A DNA stretch of 64,000 nt from Nitrospira sp. (lineage in GTDB: Bacteria; Nitrospirota; Nitrospiria; Nitrospirales; Nitrospiraceae), in the NCBI GenBank assembly GCA_035252115.1, contig DATFDJ010000194.1:16704-80703 (forward strand), written 5' to 3'. The notes beneath the pieces are model-generated. The model was given only the letters and a program-made list of their open reading frames with translations. It was not told where the DNA came from and searched no databases. Numbering within the stretch: the first letter of the stretch is position 1; each line of letters starts with the position of its first letter. The position numbers and the translations under genes are program-made. Below are positions 5,861 through 6,859 of the stretch, piece by piece.

Positions 5861-6859
5861 CTAGAGCGTTCCTTCTCCTTTCAAATAGCGCCGGAACCGG
5901 TCCATCAATTCGGCCCCTAGCGTTCCACCTTCCGGCTTCTTGGTTTCCGGATCGGCGAAGTGTCCTCTGATTTCTTTCAACCGCCTCTCGGCCTGCTCAT
6001 TGCCCTGTAACCGCCTGGTCTTTTCCAGGGCCGTATCGAACGCGTCGAACGTGAGTTCCTTGTACCCGAAAGAGCGGATCCGCTTGACGGCCTTCATCAT
6101 CGCCTGATTGCGAAATTCGGTCAGGTGATCGGAGTCGATTTCCTTCAATCCTAATTTCCTGGCGCGTCGTTCGGCGGCTTTTCGAATCCCGCTTCGCACG
6201 AAATCCGGCGAGGTCTGCAATCGCTTCCAGGCCTCGTCGGTCCAGGCGATTCGTTCTTGCGGCGCATCCCACAACTGTCTGAGAACCTGCTCGTCGATTT
6301 CAGCAATGCCTCTCTCTCGGGCAAGTTCCTCCGTATCACGCTTCAACATGTCGGTCACGAATTCAACGGCAATCGGGGGAGACTGCTTCAGCTTGTCCTG
6401 TAACCGGGCCATCGCCCCCTCGGTCCAGGGAAGCGGCGGCGCACTGGCCTCACGCACTTCTCCCATCGCTTCGACTTTCTCGAAGAGATCGACGTTGACT
6501 TCCATATGGCCGCCTTCTTTCGCGACCTCTTCGGCGATCTGCCTGATGATACCCCGCATGAACTCGGGAACGCCGTTCAGCCGCTCTTTCGCCGCGGCGG
6601 TCCAGGGCAAGCGCCCTTGTGCCATGGCTTCCGCCGCCTCCGCCATGCCGGACGCGCCGCCCATCCCTCCCATCATCTGACTCTTGAACTGGTCGAGCAC
6701 CGTCTCGGTGATTTCCGACAGACCCAATTCCCTGGCTTTTTTCTCGGCGAGCCGGCGGACCATTCCGCGCAGAAACATCGGCGCCCGTTCCATGCGCTTG
6801 AGAGCTCCCTCGGTCCAACGGACTTCCGCAGCAACCGTATGGTCGGCATCGTGATTCAT
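5861..6859 (-). CDS. Protein with four PCP_red (BchB/ChlB C-terminal-like) repeats
   Basis: Four WTxxAxxRL..P.F.R....AE..A...G...I units plus a helical C-terminal domain. Confidence 0.85.
   Translation of the reverse strand: MNHDADHTVAAEVRWTEGALKRMERAPMFLRGMVRRLAEKKARELGLSEITETVLDQFKSQMMGGMGGASGMAEAAEAMAQGRLPWTAAAKERLNGVPEFMRGIIRQIAEEVAKEGGHMEVNVDLFEKVEAMGEVREASAPPLPWTEGAMARLQDKLKQSPPIAVEFVTDMLKRDTEELARERGIAEIDEQVLRQLWDAPQERIAWTDEAWKRLQTSPDFVRSGIRKAAERRARKLGLKEIDSDHLTEFRNQAMMKAVKRIRSFGYKELTFDAFDTALEKTRRLQGNEQAERRLKEIRGHFADPETKKPEGGTLGAELMDRFRRYLKGEGTL

Follow-up and report, generated by a model that had tools for sequence, protein, structure and literature searches.

The closest described relatives of the protein considered here carry the PCP_red domain (Pfam family PF08369). 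This domain forms the C-terminal part of BchB/ChlB, the B subunit of DPOR (PDB structures: 2YNM, 2XDQ, 3AEK and 8VQI), and it makes up 2KRU and Asr4154 (2L09), two single-domain proteins of about 62 amino acids (aa), solved by nuclear magnetic resonance and without assigned function. Here we examine a 64,000-nucleotide stretch of DNA from Nitrospira sp. (contig DATFDJ010000194.1, positions 16,704 to 80,703 of the forward strand; the window, below, is this whole stretch) and in it the gene for PCP4, a protein with four PCP_red domains and a conserved tail. To judge from gene context, PCP4 is rather likely to correspond, as a separate protein, to the PCP_red-repeat extension that an AhbD/NirJ2-like radical SAM (rSAM)/SPASM enzyme has at its C-terminus, and to act as a non-catalytic subunit or multivalent scaffold. 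The PCP_red domain is known; we found nothing in the literature on the PCP4 family, the four-repeat architecture or the rSAM link.

Each PCP4 repeat matches the C-terminal domain of BchB/ChlB by sequence and by fold, and BchB and the rSAM enzyme are alike in that PCP_red is a helical appendage on an iron-sulphur (Fe-S) enzyme of a tetrapyrrole-type family. PCP4 is nevertheless not BchB, because the nitrogenase-like, NifK-type core is absent: it scores 85.5 against 490 with TIGR01278 and 98 against 509 with NF002789, in both cases at profile positions about 450-533 only. It also differs from DPOR in having four copies of the domain, a novel tail, a non-phototroph host, and an rSAM partner instead of BchN/BchL. 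The NMR-solved proteins 2KRU and 2L09, its best structural matches, share with PCP4 a free fold with no catalytic domain; they consist of a single domain, whereas PCP4 has four, its 83-aa tail is conserved, and its genomic partner is defined. The inferred partner has its closest relatives in AhbD, NirJ and NirJ2 (305-317 bits; 37-41% identity to AhbD-sized proteins of the phylum). PCP4 differs from AhbD and NirJ in that it lacks Cys and does not belong to the radical SAM proteins; the partner, for its part, carries either one PCP_red domain or the whole PCP4 module and is found where a ChdC or HemN route is already present in the genome. Finally, PqqD/RRE domains offer an analogy of working mode only: they too are small helical non-catalytic modules, fused to a SPASM enzyme or encoded beside it, but they have no sequence or fold relation to PCP4, and PCP4 has no evident peptide substrate.

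The gene and the parts of its product lie in the window as follows.

5861..6859, minus strand: PCP4 gene, 332 aa plus stop, ATG start; Cys-free product with four PCP_red domains and a conserved tail
6683..6817, minus strand: PCP_red repeat 1, residues 15-59, 52.3 bits
6644..6679, minus strand: Met/Gly-rich linker QMMGGMGGASGM, residues 61-72, predicted disordered, conserved in Nitrospirales only
6476..6604, minus strand: PCP_red repeat 2, residues 86-128, 47.7 bits
6275..6427, minus strand: PCP_red repeat 3, residues 145-195, 31.1 bits; about 8 extra residues are inserted behind helix 1
6113..6244, minus strand: PCP_red repeat 4, residues 206-249, 51.6 bits, the best conserved repeat
5864..6112, minus strand: basic helical tail, residues 250-332, 83 aa, isoelectric point (pI) 9.8

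The original prediction, made from the letters of the window, had proposed four tandem PCP_red units with an insertion in the third, a Met/Gly linker, a helical C-terminal region, and neither Cys nor catalytic residues, and it was borne out on each point. Pfam places PF08369 on four stretches of PCP4; the score of 157.5 bits (E 7.7e-47) exceeds the gathering cut-off of the family, 32.5, and the modelled protein (pLDDT 72) has the small helical fold of 2KRU and 2L09. Repeat 3 is the weakest of the four (31 bits), and its insertion is real, because 51 residues cover 43 model positions. The protein contains 0 Cys, 17 Met and 5 His, with a whole-protein pI of 7.0. NCBI names the orthologues 'PCP reductase family protein', and we found no characterised enzyme that contains PCP4. 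Orthologues are present at full length in 41 of 41 Nitrospirales genomes, with 67-91% identity, so the four-repeat protein is unlikely to be a product of chance; in a survey of the phylum none of the families sampled from the class was without it, although a single genome lacked it.

The most conserved block of the PCP4 family consists of repeat 4 and the start of the tail, FRNxAMMKAVxRIxxxGxxELTFDAFD, and the linkers are the least conserved parts. The Trp that opens each repeat is invariant, as are M254 and M255 in the tail; the family alignment has no invariant His, Cys or Tyr. The tail (residues 250-332) matches no Pfam family and no fold in PDB, and PCP4 as a whole matches no DNA- or RNA-binding family in Pfam or NCBIfam. 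As far as its residues tell, PCP4 is without catalytic or metal-ligand residues of its own. The suggestion that the Met-rich linker binds Cu(I) appears to have nothing behind it beyond the Met content, for the stretch is confined to Nitrospirales and predicted to be disordered. QMMGGMGGASGM has its five Met in families f1-f4 only, other homologues having 0-3 Met and unrelated sequence at this place, and the PCP4 family does not have the conserved Met-rich motif that marks Met-motif Cu(I) proteins of the CopC, PcoC, CusF and Ctr1 type.

Foldseek matches the PCP4 repeats to 2KRU, 2L09 and ChlB only, with probability 1.0 and a template-modelling score (target) of 0.73-0.74 for 2KRU and 2L09, and with a root-mean-square deviation of 1.2 A over 48 columns against 2YNM_D. 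In the AlphaFold model of PCP4 alone (pLDDT 72, pTM 0.38) the repeats are confident, the linkers disordered and residues 250-332 helical; the arrangement of domains in this model is unreliable because of the pTM of 0.38.

The evidence that ties PCP4 to a partner comes from outside Nitrospirales, where cluster representatives, searched exhaustively, yielded full-length homologues of 37-51% identity; in the genome collection, the best 80 of more than 560 loci were all from Nitrospira. In six sequences, namely P0140 (the protein of locus L112), P0130, L163, L164, L165 and L166, residues 13-327 of PCP4 align to the C-terminal half of proteins of 696-730 aa, of which the N-terminal half is a radical SAM/SPASM domain. 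Five of these (L112 and L163-L166) are uninterrupted fused frames from independent contigs, which makes an artefact of assembly or gene calling unlikely; P0130 is the sixth fused sequence. A KRFG motif that stands behind the enzyme's own PCP_red domain runs, in the fused proteins, into repeat 2, and therefore repeat 1 of PCP4 matches the enzyme's own PCP_red domain in position. The model of the natural fusion L112 has pLDDT 82 and pTM 0.55, with the PCP4 portion mostly at 85-96, and the fold of the modelled fusion is closest to PqqE, SkfB, SuiB and anSME. In five loci the gene behind the fusion is of the hemY family: L112, where it scores 246 bits with TIGR00562 (cut-off 98), and L163-L166.

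Where PCP4 is a separate protein, its gene is found in the following settings.

L111: SCO1, USP-PCP_red, small PCP_red protein (73 aa), rSAM-PCP_red, PCP4 (4-bp overlap), DUF420
L114: rSAM-PCP_red, USP-PCP_red, PCP4
L119: UbiA, COX3, COX4, then USP-PCP_red-rubredoxin-PCP_red, rSAM-PCP_red, a protein of 146 aa without known function, PCP4, Mrp-type ATPase (4-bp overlap)
L159, L160, L161 and L167 (other orders of the class): PCP4 beside USP, rSAM or DUF4149 genes
L157 and L158 (family f5), one strand: DUF420, HU-like, Mrp, Zn-ribbon-PCP_red, haem-oxygenase-like PF14518, PCP4, NikR

L160 repeats the pattern of L111, L114 and L119, with USP-PCP_red, rSAM-PCP_red and PCP4 in one array. In L161 about 1.2 kb separates the rSAM gene from PCP4 on the same strand, and this locus gave no USP match; in L159 PCP4 is opposite the USP-rSAM-DUF4149 genes, and in L167 it is followed by a DUF4149 gene, which in Nitrospira comes after the rSAM gene. 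The association of PCP4 with the rSAM enzyme, seen in several independent lineages, amounts to fusion in six sequences and to closeness of the two genes, adjacent or nearby, in at least seven further arrangements. The 90% cluster of the L119 homologue includes a Methylomirabilota protein, taxon names outside the phylum being taken from the annotations of two metagenome-assembled genomes.

A Mrp-type ATPase gene stands in or near the PCP4 module in four loci: in L119 it overlaps the PCP4 homologue by 4 bp (PF10609 249 bits, MrpORP 252 bits), in L157 and L158 it shares strand and cluster with PCP4, and in L159 it lies within about 1.5 kb on the same strand. Gene order in family f5 was read in L157, and L158 is known from tblastn only. 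The L157 gene between Zn-ribbon-PCP_red and PCP4 (L157:8592-9353) codes for a haem-oxygenase-like 'iron-containing redox enzyme' (PF14518, 99 bits), and a NikR gene comes after PCP4. Public names of PCP4 homologues, found for P0138 (the protein of L114) and in one cluster of homologues, include 'histone H3/H4' and 'DNA-binding MarR family transcriptional regulator', and look spurious.

The genome from which the window comes (Nitrospira assembly, 4.2 Mb, 242 contigs) has 11 PCP_red domains in five proteins, PCP4 included. Pairwise comparison of these 11 domains gives no clear sub-grouping, and none of the five carriers has a frame long enough for a BchB-type core in addition to its own other domains (bchN/chlN and bchL/chlL were not searched for). 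The four other carriers are listed here.

Window 20820..22547, minus strand: Zn-ribbon protein with two PCP_red domains (20820-21566), about 14 kb from PCP4, and next to it the Mrp ATPase (21588-22547)
Contig C2, about 3870-5190: second Zn-ribbon protein with two PCP_red domains, beside a membrane protein with a DUF420-like (CtaM-like) N-terminus
Contig C223, 7262-9083: tandem-USP protein in which a rubredoxin-like domain stands between two PCP_red domains; the frame is cut off by the contig end
Contig C232, 184-1569: rSAM/SPASM protein with one C-terminal PCP_red; motif NLTKRCNLKCDHCY

The first of these is the second PCP_red protein that the original prediction had seen about 14 kb away, and it does lie beside Mrp; the same paralogous unit of Mrp and Zn-ribbon-PCP_red shares an operon with PCP4 in other lineages. 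As on C2, PCP_red genes in L111 and L157 have DUF420 genes beside them. The USP-PCP_red and rSAM-PCP_red genes are adjacent in complete Nitrospira genomes and are followed by a gene for a DUF4149/CopD-like membrane protein (L120). The conserved Nitrospira module at L120:7268-11394 comprises a ubiE-type methyltransferase, USP-PCP_red-rubredoxin-PCP_red (about 705 aa), the AhbD/NirJ2-like rSAM/SPASM-PCP_red protein (461 aa) and the DUF4149/CopD-like protein (169 aa); in the present assembly a module of this type is split over two contig ends (C223 and C232).

The CX3CX2C motif sits in the C232 protein (NLTKRCNLKCDHCY) and not in PCP4, which has no Cys and hence no SPASM cysteines either. Among NCBIfam models the partner enzyme comes nearest to NirJ2 (317 bits), AhbD haem b synthase (305) and TIGR04053 (263), all below their cut-offs (equivalog 500 bits); with peptide maturases it scores much lower, 99 bits for PqqE and about 100-125 bits over PqqE/MftC. 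With AhbD-sized proteins of anaerobic Nitrospirota it shares 37-41% identity. On the comparisons made here, the strongest partner of PCP4 is this AhbD/NirJ2-like rSAM/SPASM enzyme with its own PCP_red domain, along with the USP-PCP_red-rubredoxin protein. PCP4 is probably a detached accessory subunit of the rSAM enzyme, because elsewhere it is fused to that enzyme or encoded beside it.

From domain content, conservation, fusions, neighbourhoods and co-occurrence we infer a physical interaction and a scaffold role, which may be pictured in the following way. The four PCP_red domains and the tail of PCP4 would dock onto the rSAM-PCP_red enzyme (C232:184-1569); PCP4 may also dock onto the tandem-USP-rubredoxin protein, a possible regulator or electron donor, and onto the Mrp ATPase with its Zn-ribbon-PCP_red partner, a possible supplier of Fe-S clusters. 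PCP_red domains are good candidates for the contacts that hold the module together, because they are on every soluble protein of it. In Nitrospirales the PCP4 gene would have moved from the rSAM module to the end of the rpsA-sppA-ihfB operon. The multivalent adaptor or scaffold that the original prediction had in mind is, as the sequences stand, a plausible and the most economical reading.

A wider, and speculative, extension is that PCP_red is a general docking module. The AhbD-like rSAM enzyme would then be the centre of a multi-protein machine, with PCP4 as a four-site hub, the USP-rubredoxin protein as regulator or electron donor, Mrp as Fe-S supplier with the Zn-ribbon-PCP_red protein as its adaptor, and the CopD-like and DUF420 membrane proteins; it would carry out, in Nitrospira, Methylomirabilota and their relatives, an oxygen-independent tetrapyrrole transformation for which no enzyme has been named so far. 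If general docking is true, the unexplained C-terminal domain of DPOR BchB would be explained by the same logic.

In Nitrospirales themselves PCP4 has other neighbours, as the upstream and downstream features of the gene show.

6878..7162, minus strand: ihfB, 94 aa, immediately upstream of PCP4; stop codon TAG at 6878-6880
6860..6877, minus strand: ihfB-PCP4 spacer, 18 nt, with an AGGA ribosome-binding site 7 nt upstream of the ATG (6859)
7208..9845, minus strand: rpsA and sppA, upstream genes of the conserved array aroA-cmk-plsC-rpsA-sppA-ihfB-PCP4
5798..5861, minus strand: stable hairpin (-35.4 kcal/mol, z -3.4), beginning at the PCP4 stop codon, between convergent genes

The distance of 18 bp from ihfB given in the original prediction is exact. 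A simple scan found no promoter-like or terminator-like site in the spacer, and the hairpin, by its sequence and position, is likely to be the transcript end. PCP4 is probably co-transcribed with the rpsA-sppA-ihfB operon in Nitrospirales, because the 18-nt spacer has a ribosome-binding site and no terminator, the hairpin is 3' of the gene, and the order is kept in three families. The seven-gene array is present in families f1, f2 and f3 and absent in f4; likewise, PCP4 is not linked to ihfB in the class's other orders or in other phyla. Of the proposal that PCP4 is expressed with housekeeping genes, the position at the end of the operon therefore stands, and the context shrinks to families f1-f3. 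In family f4 (L024:11005-11883) PCP4 lies three genes from HemD (uroporphyrinogen-III synthase, PF02602), with a conserved 142-aa gene without known function and an M23 peptidase gene in between.

Between families of the order PCP4 is 71-75% identical, compared with 72-76% for rpsA and 50-64% for sppA, cmk, plsC and aroA, so that in Nitrospira it is as conserved as ribosomal protein S1. In soils, waters and wastewater plants, nitrite is oxidised mainly by Nitrospira. The link to the AhbD-like rSAM enzyme turns the hypothetical protein after ihfB into a testable part of a four-to-six-gene system that is also found in Methylomirabilota, and it offers a starting point for working out what the PCP_red domain does, besides pointing to a branch of the haem-synthase radical SAM family.

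The rSAM orthologue (E <= 1e-89) occurs in about 87 of 90 PCP4-bearing and about 24 of 211 PCP4-less genomes (301 Nitrospirota genomes in all), figures that were counted by hand from tables and ignore phylogeny. This last limit is one of several points that weigh against an rSAM subunit or scaffold. PCP4 is not obligatory for the enzyme, because the said 24 or so genomes have rSAM-PCP_red without it; in Nitrospira the two genes are 84-125 kb apart; and in L117 the PCP4 homologue stands alone. No help comes from DPOR, where the role of the PCP_red domain is not stated in the literature that we found. Helix 398-420 of BchB contacts protochlorophyllide in trans (PMC12022308), and the PCP_red match in BchB chains is at about residues 470-525, away from this helix. 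The analogy with the pigment contact of DPOR was accordingly dropped, the contact helix being outside the PCP_red domain.

Several other roles may be weighed against that of an rSAM subunit. PqqD/RRE domains present substrates to SPASM enzymes, and HemW chaperones haem; in a similar manner PCP4 could be a carrier of a tetrapyrrole (haem, coprohaem or porphyrin) that hands substrate to an AhbD-like enzyme or takes product from it, a role which overlaps with that of a subunit and which we regard as a tentative possibility. Every catalytic PCP_red protein seen here belongs to a tetrapyrrole family (BchB, a weak match to BchZ, and the AhbD/NirJ2-like rSAM enzyme), and several neighbouring genes would suit such a role: the hemY-family gene after the fusion in five loci, the haem-oxygenase-like gene between Zn-ribbon-PCP_red and PCP4 in L157, HemD three genes away in family f4, and DUF420, SCO1, COX and UbiA genes in L111, L119 and L157. 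These links are, however, short-range and varied. M254 and M255 in the tail are invariant, but PCP4 has no invariant His, Cys or Tyr for iron ligation, and the DPOR literature found gives no contact between PCP_red and pigment. Proteins or peptides from neighbouring genes are often the targets of SPASM enzymes, which modify them, and PCP4 might instead be a protein modified by the rSAM/SPASM enzyme, its PCP_red domains being the substrates, by analogy with anSME or the maturases of ribosomally synthesised and post-translationally modified peptides. The nearness of the partner's fold to PqqE, SkfB, SuiB and anSME, the clustering of several PCP_red proteins with the enzyme (including the 73-aa one in L111) and the invariant Trp at the start of each repeat would suit this; yet the enzyme is far closer in sequence to AhbD/NirJ2 than to peptide maturases, and DPOR has PCP_red domains with no enzyme of this kind. 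We regard a role as substrate as very improbable.

The original prediction had named the Mrp module as a possible partner, which gained modest support from the four loci L119, L157, L158 and L159. That PCP4 should mainly be the adaptor of a Mrp/NBP35-type Fe-S carrier ATPase, independent of the rSAM enzyme, is nonetheless unlikely: the 4-bp overlap in L119, the common strand and cluster in L157 and L158 and the closeness in L159 are to be set against more than twelve loci for the rSAM link, no PCP4-Mrp fusion was seen, Nitrospira Mrp already has a PCP_red partner of its own, and the rSAM module is present in L119 and L159 too, so that Mrp may simply be serving that enzyme. Very improbable, too, is a housekeeping role together with IHF or S1, in which PCP4 would be associated with the nucleoid or the ribosome and would owe its place in the operon to that function. 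The position after ihfB is conserved in three families, the tail is basic (pI 9.8), conservation is at the level of rpsA, and a HU-like gene heads the cluster of Mrp to PCP4 in L157; on the other side, the ihfB link is absent from f4, the other orders and other phyla, the whole protein is neutral (pI 7.0) and matches no DNA- or RNA-binding family, and the L157 gene is HU-like and not an orthologue of IHF-beta.

The likeness of the partner enzyme to AhbD bears on haem biosynthesis, and we considered whether it is the missing coprohaem decarboxylase of the coproporphyrin-dependent pathway. The present genome has a hemE-hemH-hemY cluster (C187:3923-7441, with hemH and hemY overlapping by 4 bp), an arrangement typical of the coproporphyrin-dependent haem route. 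HemW is present (C189) and a true HemN is not; a ChdC-like protein on C185 scores 124 bits, short of the cut-off of 235. In favour of a decarboxylase, several lineages that have PCP4 are without the ChdC family, which is absent from families f5 (two of three genomes), f6, f7, f15 and f17, and the own genome is without a true HemN; against it, Nitrospirales have the ChdC-like protein, and f17, f13 and f7 have a true HemN, which adjoins hemH in f17. Since a number of carriers possess another complete route (ChdC or HemN), it is not clear that haem b synthesis needs the partner, and this assignment was not adopted.

Some minor observations concern the same genomes. A complete 2.3-Mb genome of family f2 (G037), with which other f2 genomes were grouped, has the ChdC-like protein, PCP4 and the rSAM enzyme and no ferrochelatase match at E <= 1e-10; such a match is also absent in G205, G159, G046, G056 and G065 (families f5, f6 and f15). 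Contig C171 of the present genome codes for a Cld-like protein with a predicted leader. In the window, the longest open reading frame (ORF) of sppA (7208-8230, minus strand) overlaps the end of rpsA (8130-9845, minus strand) by about 100 nt, so the true sppA start is probably downstream, at an internal Met. The gene convergent with PCP4, a 106-aa ORF at 5472-5792 on the plus strand, has no Pfam match and is conserved with 85-91% identity across other Nitrospira.

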